Assembly (NCBI GenBank): GCA_037917625.1
Contig: JAVCBY010000042.1
Coordinates: forward strand, 1 to 10,968
DNA length: 10,968 nucleotides
Direction of reading: 5' to 3'
Source: Thermoproteota archaeon
GTDB lineage: Archaea; Korarchaeota; Korarchaeia; Korarchaeales; Korarchaeaceae
This document shows positions 1 to 9,422 of this stretch, one piece after another. Every line of letters starts with the position of its first letter. Within the stretch, counting starts at the first letter, position 1. Position numbers and translations under genes: made by a program. Below the pieces are notes generated by a model that saw only the letters and a program-made list of their open reading frames with translations, did no database searches and was not told the DNA's origin.

Positions 1-745
1 TATTAAAGACATTTCATTAGAGTTCAGAGTTGGGAGGATATATGGTTTGATAGGACCCAATGGATCCGGGAAGTCTACGCTACTAAGGATGATGAACGGC
101 TTGATACCTCACTTCTACAGGGGGGAGATGGTAGGTAGAGTATTAGTGGATGGTATGGATACTAGGGAAGTTAGCGTAGCTCAATTAGCTAGGAAAGTGG
201 GGTTAGTCTTTCAGAATCCTGAGCATATGTTCTTCTCGGAATCCGTTGAGGAGGAGGTCTCCTTTGGGCCTAGATCCGTGGGGATGGGTGAGAGTGAGAT
301 CGAGGATTCTACAAGATGGAGCCTAGAAGAAGTGGGTCTCTGGGAGTTAAGGAGGAGGAGTCCTTGGTCCTTAAGTGGAGGGGAGATGAAGAGGCTCTCA
401 ATAGCTTGCATCCTCTCAATGAGACCTACTTTCATAGCGTTAGATGAGCCGACCCTGGGGCAGGATTCCATCTCTAAGGACTCCTTGATAAACTTGTTGA
501 GGAACTTGAGGGATGAGGGAAAAGGGATCATCGTCGTCACTCATGATATGGAGTGGTTGGAGGAATTAAATCCTGATGAGATCGTAGTATTGAGTAAGGG
601 GTCCGTTTATAAGAGAGGACCACCTGAGGATATCTTCTCAGATATAAGGGGCCTCGTCATGAATCAATTAATACCTCCAACCTCTTATCTCATTGAGAAC
701 CTTTTGAGGAGGTGTCTGAGTGTTCGATCCACTGGAAATGCTTGA
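1..745 (+). CDS. ecfA: ECF-type ABC transporter ATPase (EcfA/CbiO family), 5'-truncated
   Basis: Frame is open from base 2 (IKDISLEFRVGRIYGLIGPNGSGKS), so the true start lies upstream of the window and 47 is internal. Walker A GPNGSGKS, Q-loop FQNPE, signature LSGGE, Walker B IALDEP, H-loop VTHD; followed by EcfT. Confidence 0.92.
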   Translation, partial: IKDISLEFRVGRIYGLIGPNGSGKSTLLRMMNGLIPHFYRGEMVGRVLVDGMDTREVSVAQLARKVGLVFQNPEHMFFSESVEEEVSFGPRSVGMGESEIEDSTRWSLEEVGLWELRRRSPWSLSGGEMKRLSIACILSMRPTFIALDEPTLGQDSISKDSLINLLRNLRDEGKGIIVVTHDMEWLEELNPDEIVVLSKGSVYKRGPPEDIFSDIRGLVMNQLIPPTSYLIENLLRRCLSVRSTGNA

Positions 746-1481
746 GATATTCAGGGCAGGTCAGTTAGAGAGTGTATATGCTAAACTTAATCCCTTGGTC
801 AAGTTCATTCTGTTCATAATTTTCATAATACTCCCGTTGATATCCACTAGCTTCGTCCTCCAATTATTCTCATTAATAGCTCAGATCCCCCTGATATTGA
901 TGTCGAGATCCGGGAGGAGGGTCATTAGATCATTAAGAGCCTCAACTTTCTTCATTTTAATATTAATTGTTTTGAATTATATTACCACAAACAATATAAT
1001 TTTTAGTTTATCTATGGTGATCAGGTTGCTCGTAATGATAATAGCTTCAGCTATATTCATGAATGGATCTAACCCATCGGAGATAGGGGACATATTATTT
1101 AAAATGAGGGTCCCTGTATCCATTACTTTCTCCTTCATAGTGGCTTTGAGATTCATCCCCGTGCTAGCTGATGATTTCATGAATATAGTAGCTTCTCAAG
1201 CTAGCAGGGGTCATGAAGTGGAGAGGAGTGGCTTCATAAGGAGAGCTAAGAGCCTCCTCCCTCTACTGATACCCCTGATAGTTATATCTATCAGGAGAGC
1301 GCAACAATTGGCTGAGGCTTTAGAGAGTAGGTGCTTTGGATCGGGGAGGAGGACTAGTTATATCACCTATGAGGTGGGATTCATGGATTTACTCGCTCTA
1401 ACATACGCTGCTACTGTCTTGATCATAGGTTCTTTCTTGGCGACACTCCCCCTCGAGTTTCCACTCCTTCCTTTCCGATGA
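720..1481 (+). CDS. ecfT: ECF transporter transmembrane component T (EcfT/CbiQ family)
   Basis: Hydrophobic 253-aa protein with LNPLVK, ALRFIP and the two Arg coupling motifs (ASRG, ESRCF). GTG start with SD GAGGAGGTG at 706-714; overlaps the ATPase gene by 26 bp. Confidence 0.9.
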   Translation: MFDPLEMLEIFRAGQLESVYAKLNPLVKFILFIIFIILPLISTSFVLQLFSLIAQIPLILMSRSGRRVIRSLRASTFFILILIVLNYITTNNIIFSLSMVIRLLVMIIASAIFMNGSNPSEIGDILFKMRVPVSITFSFIVALRFIPVLADDFMNIVASQASRGHEVERSGFIRRAKSLLPLLIPLIVISIRRAQQLAEALESRCFGSGRRTSYITYEVGFMDLLALTYAATVLIIGSFLATLPLEFPLLPFR

Positions 1482-1484
1482 TAT

Positions 1485-1512
1485 GGAGTTGAAGATGTAT
1501 TATTTCAACTCC
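1485..1512. repeat. Perfect 9-bp inverted repeat GGAGTTGAA-N10-TTCAACTCC
   Basis: Arms at 1485-1493 and 1504-1512, immediately after the ecfT stop. Confidence 0.9.
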
Positions 1513-1525
1513 GACCCCTCTATTG

Positions 1526-1586
1526 TGGAGATGATGGAGTTGAAGGGGAGGGGTCTCTCCCTAGGCTTGGAGATGATGGAGTTGAA
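1526..1586 (+). repeat. Perfect 19-bp direct repeat TGGAGATGATGGAGTTGAA (x2)
   Basis: Copies at 1526-1544 and 1568-1586, 42-bp period. Confidence 0.95.
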
Positions 1587-1731
1587 ATATATCACATCCC
1601 AATTATTATATGTTTTCCTTATCGATGAGTGTAATATAATACTTTCGTGATACCTCATTTAAAAAGGCATCAAGTTTAAAGGTGGAGTTGATGCTTATCA
1701 TATTCAGGTCCGGGCGGAGGGGAAGTAGTGG

Positions 1732-2919
1732 ATGCCGGTAAATAGTATATTTTATGATAGCTCCTACATAAGCTATTCAATAATTAAAGATAAGAGGGTT
1801 CTGAGGGATTCATTCATACCTGATACTCTACCAGGAAGGGAGGAGCAGATATTCCAATTCACTAGGGCGTTATCAGATCTATTGAGCGACCAACCCCCGA
1901 GCGATGTAGCTTTCATAGGAAAGCCTGGAACTGGAAAGACCGCAGTAGTTAAGAACGTGGCTGGGAAGTTCAAACAGGAGTACCCTAACCTAAGGGCTAA
2001 GTTCGTTTATGTGAACTGTAGCCAAGCGACGACATCTTATAGAGTTATATATCAATTGAATAGAGCTCTAGGCGTTTTGGTCCCTCCCTCTGGCTATCCA
2101 TTCGATGTCCTCTGGGATAAGTTCATCGAAGCTTACTCATCCTCGAACTCCAGGCTCATAGTCATCTTGGATGAGGTGGATTTACTAGTCAGGAGGGATG
2201 GTGGTAGGATACTTTACTCACTCTCAAGGCTCAACTACGAGCTCGGAGGGGACTTGAGCATAAGTATGGTCGTGATAAGTAACACATTGGATTTCTTAGA
2301 GAGGTTGGATCCGAGGGAGAGGAGCAGCTTCGAGCCCCTGAGGATACACTTCCCCCCATACACTCAACCTCAGCTCTACAACATACTGAGGCAGAGAGCT
2401 GACTTAGGGATAAAGCTCGGGACTTGGGATGATGAGGCGCTTCATCTAATAGCAGCTAGAGTTGCTCAAGAATCAGGAGACGCTAGAAGAGCAATAGATG
2501 TCCTTAGAATAGCAGCTGAGATTGCGGAGGATGAGAGAGCTGAGAAGTTAACAATTAAGCATGTGGAGAAAGCCCTGAACTCAGTTAATGAGGAGGAGAT
2601 ATCAGTTACCGTGAGGACGCTTCCCCTTCACCATAGGTTGATATTAGCGGCTATAGCTGAGGTACTGGAGAGGCCTCAAGTTAGGCCGGGGACTGGGGTG
2701 ATATATTCCGTGTACAGTAAGAAGGCCCAGAGTTATGGTGTGAAACCACTCACGATGAGGAGGGTTAGCGGAATCCTGAGGGAGCTCGAATCCCTCGGCT
2801 TAGTCGAGATAAAGATGGATTACGGAGGGGCCAGGGGTAATACTAAGGTCGTGGAGAGGATGGCGATACCTCCGGAACAGGTGAAGTCCCTCCTCTTTCA
2901 GATGGGAATAAGAATGTGA
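1732..2919 (+). CDS. cdc6: Orc1/Cdc6 replication initiator (AAA+ plus winged helix)
   Basis: PDTLPGREEQ, Walker A GKPGTGKT, YVNC, Walker B ILDEVD, IHFPPY, sensor-2 GDARRAID, C-terminal winged helix (TMRRVSGILRELESLGLV). SD-like GGAGGGG at 1716-1722. Confidence 0.96.
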   Translation: MPVNSIFYDSSYISYSIIKDKRVLRDSFIPDTLPGREEQIFQFTRALSDLLSDQPPSDVAFIGKPGTGKTAVVKNVAGKFKQEYPNLRAKFVYVNCSQATTSYRVIYQLNRALGVLVPPSGYPFDVLWDKFIEAYSSSNSRLIVILDEVDLLVRRDGGRILYSLSRLNYELGGDLSISMVVISNTLDFLERLDPRERSSFEPLRIHFPPYTQPQLYNILRQRADLGIKLGTWDDEALHLIAARVAQESGDARRAIDVLRIAAEIAEDERAEKLTIKHVEKALNSVNEEEISVTVRTLPLHHRLILAAIAEVLERPQVRPGTGVIYSVYSKKAQSYGVKPLTMRRVSGILRELESLGLVEIKMDYGGARGNTKVVERMAIPPEQVKSLLFQMGIRM

Positions 2920-2939: not shown

Positions 2940-4334
2940 TTACTGAAAATTCATAATTTCAATCTCTAAATCCCTCAAATTTATTACGGGAACGTTCCCC
3001 ACGGTTACCTCTATCCCCAAGCTCCTTATGTAGGGGGTCTCATTCTCGAAAGTGCCTGAGTTGATCAGCTTAACTCCCTTATAATCCCCCACTCCGTAGA
3101 CGTGTACATGACCCGTATGAAGTACGTTAGGAGGATTCTCGATCAAGAGCCAATCCCTCCCCTCAGGCGATATAGGGTGCTCACCATATATGGGCGCTAG
3201 ATTCCTCAACCTCAAGATCCATGACATCGCTTCCACTACAGTTTGCGGGCTCACGGGCTGCAAGCCTGGTATGTGCTTCATAACAGCATTTAAGCTCCTC
3301 CCATGGTAGAGGAGGAAGTTCAAGTCCCCTATCCTCACCATAGATGGGTTGGGGAGGGCTACTATGTTCTGATTGGCATCCAACAATACATTTAAATATT
3401 CGGATTGAAGCTCCGGCTGAGGCTCAGCTTGCCTGACGGGCTCATGATTCCCCGGAATGTAAATCACTTTGATCCAACTCGGTACCCTGGAGAGGAACTT
3501 ACCGGCGTACTCGAATTGCTTATAGACATCCGATATCCTGAGCTCCTCCTCTTGATTAGGGTAGACGCCTATACCATCCACTAGATCCCCGCATATCATG
3601 AGGTATTTGACATCTCTCGCATCCTCACTCCTCAGCCATCTCAAGAACCTCTCGAAAGCTCCCTCATTGAAGTACCTACTTCCTATATGCACATCGCTTA
3701 TCATCACGACCCTCCCATAATGCCTCCCCCCGAGGACCTCATCGTTCCTCACATCCGGGAGGAAGATGCTCTCCCCATACAACTTCCCATTGATGTAAGT
3801 CCCCCTGACTCCTATCACGCTATCCAAGGGGGTCCTCTCAGCGAGCTCCCAAGCCTTGCTATCCCTCCTAAATATCACATTTAATGCGCCGCTCTCATCT
3901 TCAAGAATAATCTTTATTGATCCATCTTTCATTGAATTTTTTTCCATTATCATACCTACTATGAAGAGATTGTCCCCATTCCTACTCGTCTTATTCCTCA
4001 ACTCCGCTATGGGTATGGGCTCCAGGTCCACCCATCTCGATACTAAAGGCTTGAGCTTATCGAACCTCACTCTGATGAATTTGATGAACTCCTCAACGCT
4101 CCCAAGGATGCCCAAGTTATCTGGCTTCGAGATGACATCGAATTCTATACCGCCTCCTCTACTCCCAGCCTCTATTAAGGGGAGGATGTCCTCATAATCT
4201 ATGACGGGCTTACGAGGCAATAACTCCACTATCCTCTCAACATCATCCCTCTGCATCAAGCAGCTCAACGCTTCAGGAGTCAGATTGAGGCCCCTTCTCA
4301 AGAACTTTCTGAGCAGCTCGACTTCACTCATCAT
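2940..4334 (-). CDS. polB: DNA polymerase D small subunit DP1 (proofreading 3'-5' exonuclease)
   Basis: OB-fold region (IVGMIMEK, LEDESG) followed by calcineurin-like phosphoesterase motifs SDVHIGS, GDLVDGIGVYPNQ, PGNHE, YHG, HTGHVH, NSGTF. Confidence 0.94.
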   Translation of the reverse strand: MMSEVELLRKFLRRGLNLTPEALSCLMQRDDVERIVELLPRKPVIDYEDILPLIEAGSRGGGIEFDVISKPDNLGILGSVEEFIKFIRVRFDKLKPLVSRWVDLEPIPIAELRNKTSRNGDNLFIVGMIMEKNSMKDGSIKIILEDESGALNVIFRRDSKAWELAERTPLDSVIGVRGTYINGKLYGESIFLPDVRNDEVLGGRHYGRVVMISDVHIGSRYFNEGAFERFLRWLRSEDARDVKYLMICGDLVDGIGVYPNQEEELRISDVYKQFEYAGKFLSRVPSWIKVIYIPGNHEPVRQAEPQPELQSEYLNVLLDANQNIVALPNPSMVRIGDLNFLLYHGRSLNAVMKHIPGLQPVSPQTVVEAMSWILRLRNLAPIYGEHPISPEGRDWLLIENPPNVLHTGHVHVYGVGDYKGVKLINSGTFENETPYIRSLGIEVTVGNVPVINLRDLEIEIMNFQ

Positions 4335-4463: not shown

Positions 4464-5219
4464 TTAAGTCATATCGCCGCAGGCGCACCAAGCCTCGTTC
4501 AATGAATCGAAGACCTCCCCGAACCCCTGGAAGTACTTAGCTGAGATGGATATCACTCTTATTGGGGATCTGAAGGAAGATATAGCGTTTAATAGGTCAT
4601 TTAGGGCATCTGCATAAACACCATACCTCCCCTCCAGTAAACTCGTCTCCCCCCTCAGGACTGCCTCCCATACATCGCTGAAATCCCTCCCTCCCCAGAG
4701 ATCTGATTTATTGAGCACGGGAATTACCTTGACCCCAAGCTTCAACTCCAATATCTTCGCGAGGAGGGCAGAAGATATCAAGTCCTCTAAATCTCTCTTT
4801 GGATCGTAATCCCCTAAGTAGATGGATAGGAGCCTCATACCCCTAGATAACCTCTCGCATAAGGCCCTCCCAGTCGGTCTGAATGCGAATATCTCCATCT
4901 GTCCGGGCGTATCTATTATCAAGGTGTCGCAACTCAGCGATATGAGGGATTCAACTATATCATCGGATCTATCGACCATCAGGTCTGCAGCTCTCACTAT
5001 AGCACCATTGGGCCCTAAGTTCTCCCTCCTCATCAAATCCTCCACGCTTATAATATCCCTTATATCGTAAGAGGGCTCGTAAGGTAGGGAATGTGCTCCG
5101 GGATCTAAGTTAACCGGGCAGCTCTCGATCAAGAAGCTCTTATTCAACCATTTCGAGAAGTTCGCTGTGAATGTGGTCTTGCCCGAGCCAGCCGTACCTA
5201 ACACGATAACTCCTTTCAT
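4464..5219 (-). CDS. GPN-loop GTPase (ATP_bind_1 family)
   Basis: G1 GTAGSGKT, NLDPG, GPN loop LGPNGA, G3 DTPGQME, G4 NKSD, G5 SAK. SD GGTGG upstream on the minus strand. Confidence 0.92.
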   Translation of the reverse strand: MKGVIVLGTAGSGKTTFTANFSKWLNKSFLIESCPVNLDPGAHSLPYEPSYDIRDIISVEDLMRRENLGPNGAIVRAADLMVDRSDDIVESLISLSCDTLIIDTPGQMEIFAFRPTGRALCERLSRGMRLLSIYLGDYDPKRDLEDLISSALLAKILELKLGVKVIPVLNKSDLWGGRDFSDVWEAVLRGETSLLEGRYGVYADALNDLLNAISSFRSPIRVISISAKYFQGFGEVFDSLNEAWCACGDMT

Positions 5220-5367: not shown

Positions 5368-7692
5368 TTAATTAGATATCTTATGGAGCCTCAATAGATC
5401 TGATTTGAAGGGGCTCAACTCCTCAGGTATCTCCACTTTTATCGGTTCCCTCATGCTGAGGTTCCTCTCCTTCCTCATCCTCCAGATGCTGCTGTTGAAC
5501 TCCATTAAAGCTTCGCTCAACTTGAGGTAGTCCGTGTAGTACTCATCCCTCGGCTCAGGGAGGCTCTCTAAGTGGACTGAGCCCCCATAAATCTGTCTCC
5601 ATATATAATCAGTTATGTGAGGTATTATCGGTGCCGAGAGCTTCAGGACTGTCCTTAGGACTTGATGTAGGGTCCATCTAGCTGACCTCACCTCTACCTC
5701 ATCTCCCATACCGTAAGCCCTCTCCTTGACCAACTCGATGTAATGAGGGGCGAAGACATCCCAAACGAAGCTCCTTATCTCATTGGCCGGATCGAAGAAA
5801 TCAAATTTCTTATAGCCGTTTAACGCTCTCTCTATAGCTTTATTCAATCTACCCAATATCCATAGATCAGTTGGCTGCAAGTTCACTCTATCAGGCTCCT
5901 CGAATTGGGATATGAACCTAGCGACGTTCCATAGCTTTTGGAGGAACTTATAGGCGCCTTCTATCTTCCTCTCGGATATCCTCAAGTCAGATCCATGGTG
6001 AGCCTCAGCAGCGCCGAAGAACCTGACTGCATCAGCCCCATATTTCTCGAAAAGGGGCCAGGGATAGATCACGTTTCCTAAACTTTTATGCATAGCTCTC
6101 CCCTGAGCATCTAAACCCATGCCGGAGAGCCAGACGTGCTTGAAGGCCTGCCTTCCCAATATCTGGTGGACCCTGAGGAACGTGTAATGGAGCCATGTCC
6201 TCACTATATCCTTACCTTGAGGCCTCAAGTCGCTAGGTCCGAGCTTCTTGAACATCTCATCGTTCCAGAGGTATCCGTTGTAAACGAGAGGGGATATGGA
6301 GGAATCGAACCAAGTATCGAATACTCTCTCCTCTCCTTCAAAGCCATCCGAGGAACCGCAGTGAGGGCACCTATCGAATGGAGGATCTTCCTTCCAAGGT
6401 CTGTAATACTTCCCTGGTCTCGGTAGCACCGGCTTACCGCAGCTCTTACAGTACCATATAGGTATCTCCGTAGCGTAATATCTCCTCCTCGATATGGGCC
6501 AATCGGAGCTTATGGATCTCAACCACTCCCTCCAATAGTTAGAGGACCACTCAGGGTAGAACTTGATAGTATTCAAGTAATTCTCGAGATCTCGAACGAA
6601 ATCTATCTGCTTGAGGTAGTATTCCCTCATGGGGATTATCTCGAGCGGAGTCTTGCACCTCCAGCAAACCGGAGTCCTATGAATTATATCCTCAACTCTC
6701 TCAACGAATCCTTCTTCCTCCAGATCTTCTATTATCTTCTGCCTAGCTTCGCTTATCGTAAGCCCCTTGTACCTTCCAGCCGCTTCATTCATTAGACCAT
6801 CCTCATCCACTACCATCTTAGGATCGAGCCCCAACTCCCTGAAGAGCTGTACGTCCATCTTATCCCCGTAAGAACATACCATCACTAGACCAGTTCCGAA
6901 CTCGGGGTTAGCGTACGGATGCTCTAATACCGGAACTATATCCCCCAGGGGAGTGACCAACCTCTCCCCCCTGAGCCAATGGTATCTAGAGTCATCAGGG
7001 TTGTATATCACCGCTCTGCAAGCTGGAAGTAGCTCGGGTCTAGTAGTAGCTATAGTGACCCTCTCATCACTCCCCTCAACTCTGAACCTCAAGTAGACTA
7101 ATTTTGTTGGTATCTCACTATACTCAACTTCAGCATCAGCTAGAGTAGTCCTGCACCTCGGACAGTAAACGTTAGGCCTATAATCTTCATAAACGAATCC
7201 CTTGCTCCATGCATCGATGAAAGTAGCTTGAGTCACCATCCTCCATAACTCGTTATCAGTCTGGAAGTATTGCTCAGTGGTGAAGCTTATCCCCAACCTC
7301 CTGGTTATCGAGACTATATCCTGCTCAGCCTCATCCAAGAACTCCCTGCAGAGTCTTATGAACTCCTCCCTCGGATATTCGAACATCCTTATCTTGTATC
7401 GCTTCTCCGTCTCCACCTCAACTGGGAGCCCGTTCCTATCTATCCCGAGGGGGAAGTAGACCTCATAACCCATCATCCTCATGGTCCTAGCTATCATATC
7501 TATCTGAGAGTAGTGGATCGCTGCTGCTATGTGCCACTTCCCGCTAGCGTAAGGTGGAGGGGTATCTATTGAGAACGCAGGCTTCTCCGTATTCGGATCG
7601 AACTTATATATCCTCTCCTCATTCCAGATCCTCTGTATCTCGAGCTCCATCTCGGGAGACCAGTGCTTCTCCTTGAGCCTTGGCTCTAACAA
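5368..7692 (-). CDS. valS: Valyl-tRNA synthetase
   Basis: FSIDTPPPY, editing domain ATTRPELL, FGTGLVMVCSYGD, DWPISRRRYY, VFDTWFDSS, LRPQGKDIVRTW, YGADAVR, KLWNVARF. TTG start with SD GGAGGGG. Confidence 0.95.
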   Translation of the reverse strand: MLEPRLKEKHWSPEMELEIQRIWNEERIYKFDPNTEKPAFSIDTPPPYASGKWHIAAAIHYSQIDMIARTMRMMGYEVYFPLGIDRNGLPVEVETEKRYKIRMFEYPREEFIRLCREFLDEAEQDIVSITRRLGISFTTEQYFQTDNELWRMVTQATFIDAWSKGFVYEDYRPNVYCPRCRTTLADAEVEYSEIPTKLVYLRFRVEGSDERVTIATTRPELLPACRAVIYNPDDSRYHWLRGERLVTPLGDIVPVLEHPYANPEFGTGLVMVCSYGDKMDVQLFRELGLDPKMVVDEDGLMNEAAGRYKGLTISEARQKIIEDLEEEGFVERVEDIIHRTPVCWRCKTPLEIIPMREYYLKQIDFVRDLENYLNTIKFYPEWSSNYWREWLRSISSDWPISRRRYYATEIPIWYCKSCGKPVLPRPGKYYRPWKEDPPFDRCPHCGSSDGFEGEERVFDTWFDSSISPLVYNGYLWNDEMFKKLGPSDLRPQGKDIVRTWLHYTFLRVHQILGRQAFKHVWLSGMGLDAQGRAMHKSLGNVIYPWPLFEKYGADAVRFFGAAEAHHGSDLRISERKIEGAYKFLQKLWNVARFISQFEEPDRVNLQPTDLWILGRLNKAIERALNGYKKFDFFDPANEIRSFVWDVFAPHYIELVKERAYGMGDEVEVRSARWTLHQVLRTVLKLSAPIIPHITDYIWRQIYGGSVHLESLPEPRDEYYTDYLKLSEALMEFNSSIWRMRKERNLSMREPIKVEIPEELSPFKSDLLRLHKISN

Positions 7693-7737: not shown

Positions 7738-8307
7738 TCAGGGCTCCCCCTGGGAGTAGCGACAACCCGCCAACAGCCTCGATACTATATCCACTATCCT
7801 AATCTGCTCCGGGATCTTGGATTCCACTACGTACTTCAGTATGATCCTCTCAGCCTCATCCTCAGTCAATCCGATGGTCGAGTAGAAGCACACCCCCTTG
7901 GGGGTCCTCAATGGGCTATATGAAGGGTTCCTCCTCACTATCTCGAGTTTTCCCATCATCCCAGCTGAGATAAGAGCTCTCTCTATCTCATCCGTCGGTG
8001 CCTTCGATGTGACAGCTATGAAAGGTATGCCAGTCTCATCGTAGAATCTGTTGACATCTAATACGTTCAAACCAGCGAAAGTAGTGCCCTGACTCATGAC
8101 TACTCTGACTTCCTCCCTCAGCTTAGGGCCCCTCACCATCCTTATCAGAGCGTCAGTGGAGTCATCGCCATCCACGGATATCCTCTCCCTCAGGGATAGT
8201 TCCATTATGAGATCCCTGAACATGAGCCCGACTAAGAATGTCTCAGAATCCTTCCCCCTCTCGAATGGGGAGTCATCGACCGCTAATATCCTACCCTTGA
8301 TGCGCAA
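7738..8307 (-). CDS. DUF99 family protein (endonuclease V-like fold)
   Basis: ILAVDDSPF, VDGDDST, FAGLNVLD, SKIPEQIRI recognised as the DUF99 pattern; TTG start; co-oriented with valS. Confidence 0.8.
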   Translation of the reverse strand: MRIKGRILAVDDSPFERGKDSETFLVGLMFRDLIMELSLRERISVDGDDSTDALIRMVRGPKLREEVRVVMSQGTTFAGLNVLDVNRFYDETGIPFIAVTSKAPTDEIERALISAGMMGKLEIVRRNPSYSPLRTPKGVCFYSTIGLTEDEAERIILKYVVESKIPEQIRIVDIVSRLLAGCRYSQGEP

Positions 8308-8362: not shown

Positions 8363-9106
8363 ATGAGCTTAGAGGAACGCATGAGGAAGGAATCGGCTGA
8401 GAGGACCCTCCTAGCTGTACTACTCGATCCAGCTAAATTGGATGATGAGGGGGCTAGGAAGTTAGCTAGGGCAGCTTCAGATGGGGGAGCTGATCTGATA
8501 TTCGTCGGGGGATCTATAGGAGCTGGTTTCAGGTTAAATGAGGTAATATTGAGCATTAAGAGGGAATCCAATATACCGATAATCCTATTCCCAGGGAACG
8601 TCGATGGAGTATCCCCTCACGCTGATGCCATACTCTTCATGTCCCTCCTCAACTCAACTAATCCCTACTGGATAATACAAGCTCAAGCTTTAGCTGCGAT
8701 CCCGATAAGGAGGATGGGTCTAGAGGCCATACCTACAGCTTACCTCATAGTGGAGCCGGGGCAGAGGAGCGCCGCCGGCTGGGTGGGCTCAGTCAACCCA
8801 ATACCTAGGGATAAACCGGAGATAGCTTTAGCTTATGCTACAGCAGCTGAGATGCTCGGGATGAGGTGGATCTATCTAGAGGCAGGGAGCGGCGCTGAAG
8901 CTCCAGTACCACCTGAGATGGTGAGATTAGTTAGGGAGAGGACGAATCTCGGCATAATAGTCGGTGGAGGTCTCAGATCCCCTGAGCTAGTGAGGGAGAG
9001 AGCTGAAGCAGGGGCTAACGTAATAGTGGTGGGGACGCATATCGAAGAGGGAAGGGACGCCTTAGCTAGTGTAAAGGAGATGAAGGAGGCCCTGAGGAAG
9101 CGTTAA
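8363..9106 (+). CDS. Geranylgeranylglyceryl phosphate synthase (group II-like)
   Basis: LLDPAK, IFVGGS, ILFPGN, ADAILFMSLLNS, YLEAGSGA, VGGGLR, IVVGT. Confidence 0.93.
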   Translation: MSLEERMRKESAERTLLAVLLDPAKLDDEGARKLARAASDGGADLIFVGGSIGAGFRLNEVILSIKRESNIPIILFPGNVDGVSPHADAILFMSLLNSTNPYWIIQAQALAAIPIRRMGLEAIPTAYLIVEPGQRSAAGWVGSVNPIPRDKPEIALAYATAAEMLGMRWIYLEAGSGAEAPVPPEMVRLVRERTNLGIIVGGGLRSPELVRERAEAGANVIVVGTHIEEGRDALASVKEMKEALRKR

Positions 9107-9247: not shown

Positions 9248-9320
9248 AGCCCCGTGGTGTAGCGGCCAAGCACGCCGGGCTCTGGACCCGGAGACCCCGG
9301 TTCGAATCCGGGCGGGGCTA
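9248..9320 (+). tRNA. tRNA-Gln(CTG)
   Basis: Acceptor AGCCCCG/CGGGGCT (A1-U72, typical of archaeal tRNA-Gln), anticodon arm CCGGG-CTCTGGA-CCCGG (CTG at 9282-9284), T-arm CCCGG-TTCGAAT-CCGGG; 73 nt, no intron. Confidence 0.96.
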
Positions 9321-9348
9321 CTCAATTCCTGCGAAGCTATCAAAATAG

Positions 9349-9422
9349 CGGGCCCGGGGGGCTTCGAACCCCCGACCCCCCGGTTAAGAGCCGGGTGCTC
9401 TACCATTCTGAGCTACGGGCCC
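9349..9422 (-). tRNA. tRNA-Lys(CTT)
   Basis: Minus strand reads GGGCCCG-TA-GCTC-AGAATGGTA-GAGC-A-CCCGG-CTCTTAA-CCGGG-GGGTC-GGGGG-TTCGAAG-CCCCC-CGGGCCC-G; 74 nt. Confidence 0.96.

Follow-up and report, generated by a model that had tools for sequence, protein, structure and literature searches.

A candidate replication origin with lineage-specific recognition boxes upstream of cdc6 in Candidatus Korarchaeum

Introduction

Where does replication of the chromosome start in Korarchaeota, and which sequences would the initiator protein recognize there? The question is raised by a contig of 10,968 bases (JAVCBY010000042.1), here referred to as the window, which is one whole contig of a Candidatus Korarchaeum metagenome-assembled genome (G000; 116 contigs, 1.22 Mb, 47% GC). 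The window contains an orc1/cdc6 gene, and directly upstream of this gene lies a cluster of short repeats that resemble the origin recognition boxes (ORBs) of other archaea but have G in place of the C of canonical ORBs. The literature searched contained no description of an origin from Korarchaeota or of its boxes (a database prediction may exist), and Korarchaeota are absent from the main text of the Ori-Finder papers, as far as these were available.

Here, we present evidence that the stretch upstream of cdc6 is very probably a chromosomal replication origin. We also consider it likely, with somewhat less confidence, that it represents the oriC of Candidatus Korarchaeum species and that its boxes, with the consensus hRGAGTKGAAr, are bound by the neighboring Orc1/Cdc6 protein.

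A Cluster of Boxes Upstream of cdc6

A first-pass annotation of the window had listed six GGAGT[T/G]GA motifs upstream of a gene identified as cdc6, along with a tract of about 75% AT. All six motifs were recovered, the tract was found to be 75% AT on recount, and the downstream open reading frame (ORF) was confirmed as Orc1/Cdc6 by Pfam (Table 1). Two additional degenerate copies of the sequence GGAGATGAT, at positions 1527-1535 and 1569-1577, were absent from that annotation, and a total of 8 box copies are located within positions 1443-1692, directly upstream of cdc6. The extra copies turn boxes D and E into tandem doublets with a 9-bp phase, and the doublet TGGAGATGATGGAGTTGAA is present twice, 42 bp apart, with 19 of 19 nucleotides identical between the 2 boxes. 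The candidate oriC covers the spacer between cbiQ and cdc6 as well as the 3' end of cbiQ, and includes seven to eight of the box copies.

The boxes are arranged in a nested pattern. Box A, which falls within the final 13 codons of cbiQ (positions 1443-1481), is followed by a G-string, seen as C5 at 1448-1452 on the plus strand and not noticed previously, and its layout matches the full-length common ORB with its G-string, for which the pattern TCCA[CG]T[TG]GAAA[TC][GA]AAGGGGT is given in the available part of PMC4164010. Box D is a second full-length ORB-like element, which is inverted relative to box A at a distance of 67 bp, with the G-strings of both boxes in distal positions. This pair encloses boxes B and C, a pair of mini-boxes that are inverted to each other and separated by a 10-bp spacer (1494-1503) with 80% AT, while the doublet E and the AT-rich tract follow further downstream.

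The sequence GGAGTKGA was identified 9 times in the window, compared with 1.03 +/- 1.07 times in 200 shuffled sequences with preserved dinucleotide composition (the largest count was 5, and none reached 9), and 6 of the 9 copies were located inside 235 bp. Across the 1.22 Mb of the genome there were 256 matches, often on purine-rich coding strands, and the densest 300-bp segment was the cluster upstream of cdc6 with 6 matches, followed by 3 matches in the next best segment elsewhere. A similar result was obtained for G012, a complete congener with a single contig of 1,590,757 bp, in which the Cdc6 protein is 96% identical and cdc6 is located at 1,378,915-1,380,102: the top 300-bp cluster contained 5 matches at 1,378,669, and the next best 3. 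The motif count across the genome, which the first-pass annotation had put forward as a check, thus revealed enrichment at the cdc6 locus and nowhere else. A chance origin of the cluster was considered and is excluded by the shuffled sequences and by the counts in 300-bp segments. Searches of G000 and G012 for clusters of the canonical TCCANNNGAA recovered no 300-bp segment with more than 2 sites.

In G012, the stretch upstream of cdc6 was also the sole non-coding, non-CRISPR region with at least 5 copies of a single 8-mer per 400 bp. This genome contains CRISPR-like repeat arrays at about 444-451 kb, and its other 8-mer clusters correspond to genes with coiled-coil repeats, for example near 402, 467, 522, 676, and 741 kb.

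Conservation of the Boxes Within the Genus

To follow the boxes beyond the window, we used 20 genomes of the same genus, 18 of which contained an orthologous Cdc6 protein, while G006 (63% complete) and G008 (78% complete) contained only a paralogue. Within 450 nt upstream of cdc6, at least 2 exact matches to GGAGT[TG]GA were present in 17 of the 18 other loci, and only degenerate copies, with 0 exact matches to the 8-mer, in the remaining locus, L015. The motif is thus conserved upstream of the orthologous genes, which was another point that the first-pass annotation had left to be checked.

The window and the 18 other loci were aligned with MAFFT. In this alignment of 19 loci, the boxes form conserved blocks with the same position and orientation, separated by diverged spacers. 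The 7 boxes in 19 loci gave 133 instances, 70 of which were distinct, with the profile h-[G109/A17]-G129-A133-[G100]-[T89]-[T89/G33]-G133-A132-[A106/T25]-[A70/G52], from which the consensus hRGAGTKGAAr was derived. The A (133/133), the G of GAA (133/133), and the A that follows it (132/133) are invariant or nearly so. The presence of G at the position of the canonical C in 129 of the 133 instances agrees with the previous suggestion of a lineage-specific ORB. The accompanying statement that every copy has GG in place of CC is correct for the 6 copies in the window and for most instances in the genus, where the dinucleotide is GG in 108, AG in 16, and CC in only 2 of the 133. GG is strongly preferred, with exceptions such as box C, which has TCCAGCTGAAGG in L005 and CCCAATTGAAAG in L007.

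The core of box A was conserved in all 19 loci, with GG in 18 of them and a run of G residues following it in most. Furthermore, the leucine codons CTC CTT within the box were unchanged in 18 of the 19 loci, which suggests that the DNA sequence itself is constrained in addition to the protein. In box B, the G, A, and GAA positions were invariant, with GG in 15 loci, whereas box C had GG in 13 loci, CC in 2, and CG in 1. The doublet of box D was conserved in the genus, and most congeners read GAA-N5-6-GGGG at this position. In the first half of box E, GAGnTGA, the residues A, G, T, G, and A were invariant in all 19 loci and the first G was present in 18. The spacing between boxes D and E ranged from 38 to 42 bp, showing that strict helical phasing is not conserved. 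The sequence of the AT-rich tract has diverged in the genus, while its AT-richness has been retained, and 18 of the 19 loci contained the GGAGGG string in front of the start codon.

Box F was retained only in L001-L007, as TGGAGT[TG]GA or TAGAGTGGA, while L008-L017 have TCCAGAGG or CCAGATG at the same position. It was also noted that 2 positions in this box flip between GG and CC when the closest relatives are compared with the sister clade (TCCAGAGG).

Beyond the genus, 4 loci at the family level, with 52% to 57% identity in Cdc6, contained 1, 0, 1, and 1 exact matches, and related boxes were also seen. The doublet form, rGAGnTGA followed by yrGAGyGGAAr, was present in 2 of these loci (L019 and L022). 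No exact match to GGAGT[TG]GA was identified within 450 nt upstream of cdc6 in 8 more distant loci; as a positive control, the same procedure recovered 3 canonical TCCAGTGGAAA boxes in one distant locus (L030).

Strand Skew in Two Related Genomes

The genome that contains the window was too fragmented for an analysis of cumulative skew, and the analysis was therefore performed on congeners. The raw cumulative GC and AT skews of G012, as well as the purine-pyrimidine (RY) and amino-keto (MK) skews, were tried as origin markers and dropped, since their extremes follow gene orientation. For this reason, we adopted a strand-corrected skew, which was calculated from third codon positions with four-fold degeneracy in 1384 crude ORF-genes of G012 by subtracting the genome-wide gene-strand bias and projecting the residual onto the plus strand.

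With this measure, and only with this measure, G012 displayed a clean pattern of 2 arms. The minima of the cumulative GC skew (GC4) and AT skew (AT4) at four-fold sites were located at 1,377,530 and 1,382,823, which is within 1.4 and 3.9 kb of the start of cdc6, respectively, and the maxima at 584,993 and 622,383, the antipode of the cdc6 locus being at 583,322. The skew ranges were reached by 0 of 2000 permutations, and the best partition of the circle into 2 halves was obtained at 1,380,000-1,382,000 for both measures. In contig 1 of a second congener, G015 (911,588 bp; Cdc6 86% identical, gene at 298,565-299,749), the GC4 minimum was located inside cdc6, at 299,134, and the AT4 minimum at 274,326, on a plateau that continues to 300 kb; here too, 0 of 2000 permutations reached the skew range. 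The cumulative skew proposed in the first-pass annotation, once corrected, thus switches at the cdc6 locus in both congeners, although the 2 results are not fully independent because the genomes are related. The skew switch, the enrichment of the motif, and its conservation in the genus all support the original suggestion that the region is an origin.

A search for dif-like sites identified 59 non-coding palindromes of the form 11-6-11 in G012, one of which, AGGTTATA-N6-TATAACCT at 633,810-633,831, is a candidate located near the skew maxima. When up to 1 mismatch was allowed, its arms were identified in 7 of 21 genomes of the genus, usually once in each, compared with 2 of 21 for a reversed control, and were not found in G000, G015, or G016. 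As a marker of the terminus, this palindrome is weak evidence and only suggestive.

The Initiator Protein and Its Wing

The best relatives of the korarchaeal Cdc6 among the solved structures were ORC1 of A. pernix (2v1u_A, 3.8e-72) and Orc1-1 of S. solfataricus (2qby_A, 8.1e-69). The only base-specific contact of Orc1-1 is that of Arg341 in the helix-turn-helix (HTH) motif to a guanine, while Arg365 in the wing contacts the backbone, and the replacement R365A raises the Kd from 0.39 to 4.6 uM (PMC3089459). In the korarchaeal protein, the HTH motif RRVS has been retained, and the spacing of 24 residues in the alignment places Arg341 at the conserved RR of TMRRVSG. The residue aligned with Arg365 of S. 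solfataricus is an alanine in the wing sequence YGGARGNTK, in which an arginine is found one position later and 2 other basic residues have been lost. The wing YGG[AS]-[RY]GNTK was present in all 25 loci from Korarchaeaceae (including 2 duplicate records, and 2 loci with one substitution), whereas most other Orc1-1-like loci contained S[KR]GRYGRTK.

The wing and the 5' half of the box may have changed together. A test for such covariation in 8 DPANN loci with G-x-RG-x-T wings found no repeated boxes upstream. We tentatively raise the possibility, about which we remain doubtful, of a co-evolved swap of specificity in Korarchaeaceae, whereby the wing lost 3 basic residues and its arginine was shifted by one position while the box changed from CC to GG, in a chromosome with a head-on rRNA operon and most genes head-on. 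If so, the initiator and its box would be orthogonal to the canonical Orc1/ORB pairs, and the wing, rather than the recognition helix alone, would set the specificity for the origin.

According to our model, Orc1/Cdc6 would bind boxes A to E via its winged-helix domain, such that the Arg-Arg pair of the recognition helix reads the retained GT[T/G]GAA half of the box, the rewired wing (YGGARGNTK for S[KR]GRYGRTK) lies over the 5' half that has changed, with the initiator-specific motif of the AAA+ domain on the G-strings. The bound initiators would recruit MCM, the DNA would melt in either the adjacent tract with 75% AT or the segment between the inverted boxes A and D (60% AT, with the 10-bp core at 80% AT), and replication would then proceed bidirectionally. 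We infer the binding of the boxes by Cdc6, the melting site, and the polarity of the locus (origin versus terminus). Box F may serve as an autoregulatory site at which Cdc6 represses its own promoter in the clade of L001-L007.

A second Orc1/Cdc6 paralogue, which is 27% identical and has the wing SGEGMKGQST, is encoded at C2:24690-25790 in G000, and no box cluster was identified in the 720 nt searched upstream of its gene.

Putative Promoter Elements and Neighboring Genes

The positions of the boxes and of the other features in the window are listed in Table 1. We take the TATA-like boxes to be the cdc6 promoter, based on the archaeal TATA consensus, and box F sits between the TATA-like box and a conserved ATTCAGGTC. 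The gene for the DP1-like small subunit of PolD is convergent with cdc6 and is part of the neighborhood but is located outside the origin proper. A neighborhood of cdc6 and dp1 is known from origins in Thermococcales (PMC1904270, available part), and the arrangement in the window resembles that of the Pyrococcus origin. The genes for tRNA-Gln and tRNA-Lys are convergent, with 27 bp of GC-rich spacer between them.

Table 1. Boxes, associated elements, and genes in the window
Feature	Position	Strand	Sequence or remark
Box A, full-length ORB-like	1443-1467	-	GGAGTGGAAAC-TCGA-GGGGG-AGTGT (minus-strand reading); core and G-string
First motif (box A core)	1458-1467	-	GGAGTGGAAA
Box B, mini-ORB-like	1484-1494	+	TGGAGTTGAAG; motif TGGAGTTGAA at 1484-1493
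Box C, mini-ORB-like	1501-1513	-	CGGAGTTGAAATA (minus-strand reading); motif GGAGTTGAAA at 1503-1512
Box D, doublet and G-string	1526-1553	+	TGGAGATGA-TGGAGTTGAA, then GGGGAGGGG (1545-1553); motif at 1535-1544
Box E, doublet	1568-1589	+	TGGAGATGA-TGGAGTTGAAATA; motif TGGAGTTGAAA at 1577-1587; 42 bp downstream of box D
AT-rich tract, candidate unwinding element	1585-1665	.	75% AT
TATA-like boxes	1658-1680	+	TTTAAAAAGG (1658-1667) and TTTAAA (1675-1680); conserved columns in the 19-locus alignment
Box F	1683-1692	+	TGGAGTTGAT; motif TGGAGTTGA at 1683-1691
Shine-Dalgarno-like element (putative function)	1716-1722	+	GGAGGGG, 9 nt before ATG
orc1/cdc6, Orc1-1 type	1732-2919	+	395 aa; Pfam Cdc6_C 6.2e-19, Cdc6_lid 6.3e-19
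ABC ATPase gene	2-745	+	
CbiQ gene (cbiQ)	720-1481	+	
PolD small-subunit (DP1)-like gene	2940-4334	-	Pfam Metallophos, DNA_pol_E_B; weak sub-cut-off match to oligonucleotide-binding (OB) fold
GPN-type ATPase gene	4464-5219	-	
Class I aminoacyl-tRNA synthetase gene	5368-7692	-	
Endo_dU gene	7738-8307	-	
PcrB gene	8363-9106	+	
tRNA-Gln (CTG) and tRNA-Lys (CTT)	9248-9422	+ and -	
Succinyl-CoA synthetase subunit genes			in window

Alternative Explanations

Several observations weigh against the interpretation of the locus as an origin. The raw cumulative GC skew of G012 has its minimum at 522,865 and its maximum at 1,582,021, and not at cdc6, and the skew tests rest on congeners rather than on the genome of the window itself. 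A surplus of G on the leading strand is the usual pattern and has been reported for thermophilic archaea, but the pattern is inverted in haloarchaea (PMC1868953), so that the switch alone marks either an origin or a terminus and the polarity is assumed. Within +/-100 kb, the switch at the locus in G012 has much the same slope as that at the antipode, for which reason its sharpness cannot tell an origin from a terminus. If the locus is an origin, 626 of the 1384 genes in G012 (45%) are co-directional with replication, and the leading strand would be rich in A as well as in G, unlike the pattern usually seen in bacteria. Furthermore, the direction of the 16S rRNA gene is towards the locus in G012 (1,326,563-1,328,058, plus strand, 51 kb to the left) as well as in G015 (390,923-392,417, minus strand, 92 kb to the right), and the gene would therefore be head-on. 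As for the boxes themselves, box A is located in a coding sequence, and part of its conservation may therefore be at the protein level. Finally, the AT-rich tract is flanked by 2 boxes of the same orientation instead of an inverted pair, and it shares sequence with the presumed cdc6 promoter. Its AT content is exceeded elsewhere in the window, and it ranks only fourth among the least stable 40-mers, 2 of the 3 that score lower being located between predicted ORFs.

If instead the boxes were operators for the autoregulation of cdc6 only, and the switch were a terminus with inverted polarity, for which the haloarchaea provide a precedent (PMC1868953), the origin would be located near the antipode, and the rRNA operon and 55% of the genes would be co-directional with replication. 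The position of box F, with the TATA-like box on one side and the presumed start of transcription on the other, is what one would expect of an operator, but most of the boxes are located well away from the promoter, at 150-290 nt before the ATG. Moreover, no other cluster of ORB-like or non-coding repeats was identified in G012, including the segment from 540 to 680 kb, and there is no cdc6 gene near the antipode, the paralogue being located at 1,016,336. The polarity reported for thermophilic archaea is the bacterial one (PMC1868953), and an spc-like ribosomal-protein operon at 1.520-1.554 Mb (plus strand), which together with an S-layer gene is co-directional with a fork that starts from the locus, would be head-on. 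The dif-like palindrome near the antipode of G012 points weakly in the same direction, and we find a terminus at this locus quite improbable. The idea that the repeats represent a structured or small RNA, such as a C/D-box small RNA suggested by the GATGATGG strings, or a DNA cruciform, draws on a TGATGG string in boxes D and E and on the inverted repeats, which give a fold z-score of -2.39, with 5 of 200 shuffled sequences folding as well. However, no Rfam match was obtained for positions 1200-2000 up to E = 1, and the TGATGA-like string is not conserved, with many relatives reading GGAGTTGAAGGA. Between species, box C and box E2 differ in their central triplets independently of each other (GAA versus ATG in L008), showing that pairing is not maintained. 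With no Rfam match, no maintained pairing, and a z-score of only -2.39, the structured RNA was rejected, and we give this explanation next to no credence.

It is also conceivable, if unlikely, that the origin is real but that the boxes are read by another protein, for example an origin-binding or nucleoid-associated factor specific to the lineage, and that Cdc6 binds via DNA shape or other sequences. The replacement of the near-invariant C of canonical ORBs speaks for such a protein, as do the very few base-specific contacts made by archaeal Orc1 (PMC3089459) and the essential non-ORB motif in Sulfolobus origins that is bound by UBP, according to the available part of PMC12141716. On the other hand, the boxes keep the ORB layout: the core reads A-N3-GAA[AG], a G-string follows after 5-6 nt, and the full-length copies are inverted. 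Only the positions in front of the A depart from the common ORB, and the neighboring gene encodes an initiator of the Orc1-1 type with a conserved recognition helix. An origin at which the neighboring Orc1/Cdc6 binds the boxes is thus the interpretation that we favor.

This interpretation would provide a defined and conserved candidate origin for Korarchaeota, with support from the skew in 2 genomes. The box departs from the pan-archaeal ORB exactly where the wing of the initiator is thought to face, and the wing is altered in the same family, which makes the locus a natural test case for how Orc1/Cdc6 reads DNA. Since the raw GC skew fails and canonical ORB patterns find no cluster, tools for the prediction of origins would need either a family-specific motif or a strand-corrected skew in these genomes.

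Comparison with Known Origins

The sequence of the ORB is known to vary among genera (PMC5333045, a review, available part). The published regular expressions all have CA before the central triplet, 4 of the 5 as TCCA or CCA, and share the core "TCCA-GAAAC" (Table 1 of the Ori-Finder 2 paper, PMC4164010, from which the following patterns are also taken). They read [TC]TCCAGTGGAAA... in Thermococcaceae, TCCA[GC]T[GT]GAAA... in Methanomicrobia, TCCA[AG][AT][TG]GAA... in Sulfolobaceae, TT[TC]CACC[GCT]GAAAC... in Halobacteriaceae, and TT[TA]CACTTGAAAT... in Methanobacteriaceae (PMC4164010). Compared with a canonical box, TCCAGTGGAAAC-GGGG, the korarchaeal box keeps A-N3-GAA[AG] and the G-string, and G (129/133) replaces the C of the published patterns. 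The canonical core TCCA-N3-GAAA is not matched, since no copy in the window has TCC, whereas other traits of ORBs are present, namely several copies clustered beside orc1/cdc6 and, in boxes A and D, a G-string that follows the core after a few bases. An unwinding element (DUE) between inverted boxes, ORB(-)/DUE/ORB(+), has been described for 67% of predicted oriCs in the available part of a preprint (10.64898/2026.08.15.744077). Boxes A(-) and D(+) are likewise inverted with distal G-strings, but the 67 bp between them are only 60% AT, and the 75% AT tract is located outside the pair, between E(+) and F(+).

The locus shows similarities to the oriC of Pyrococcus and other Thermococcales, which is described in the available part of PMC1904270. 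Both are located directly upstream of a single initiator-type cdc6 gene with a gene for the small subunit of PolD beside it, both combine short boxes with a few longer inverted ones (13-bp mini-ORBs and longer ORBs in Pyrococcus), and the GAA has been retained. As in Pyrococcus, there is apparently a sole origin, judging from the single V-shaped skew. However, "TTCC" and "GAA" are perfectly conserved in the Pyrococcus boxes (PMC1904270), and the former is replaced by hRGA in the korarchaeal boxes. Unlike in Pyrococcus, as far as described there, the korarchaeal dp1 gene is convergent with cdc6 and contains one GGAGTTGA match without the GAA ending (at 3998) and no second box cluster. The tandem doublets with a 9-bp phase were seen in the korarchaeal boxes only and are not described for Pyrococcus in the available part of PMC1904270.

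The closest initiators among the solved structures are those of Sulfolobus and A. pernix, and the ORBs of Sulfolobus oriC1, the mini-ORBs of oriC2, and the boxes of A. pernix offer a second comparison. In 2 of the korarchaeal boxes, a G-string is located 3' of the core as in these systems, and AGATGA, found in the first half of box D and of box E, also occurs in the oriC2 mini-ORB of S. solfataricus (GATTTTCAGATGAAACG). Unlike in Sulfolobus, G replaces C before the A, and there is one origin rather than three. The mini-ORB of Methanobacteriaceae differs in having CAC where the korarchaeal box has GAG, as well as in the orientation of the boxes and the clade of the initiator, but is similar in being a short box of about 13 bp that occurs in multiple copies with TTGAAAT in its 3' half (PMC4164010, available part).

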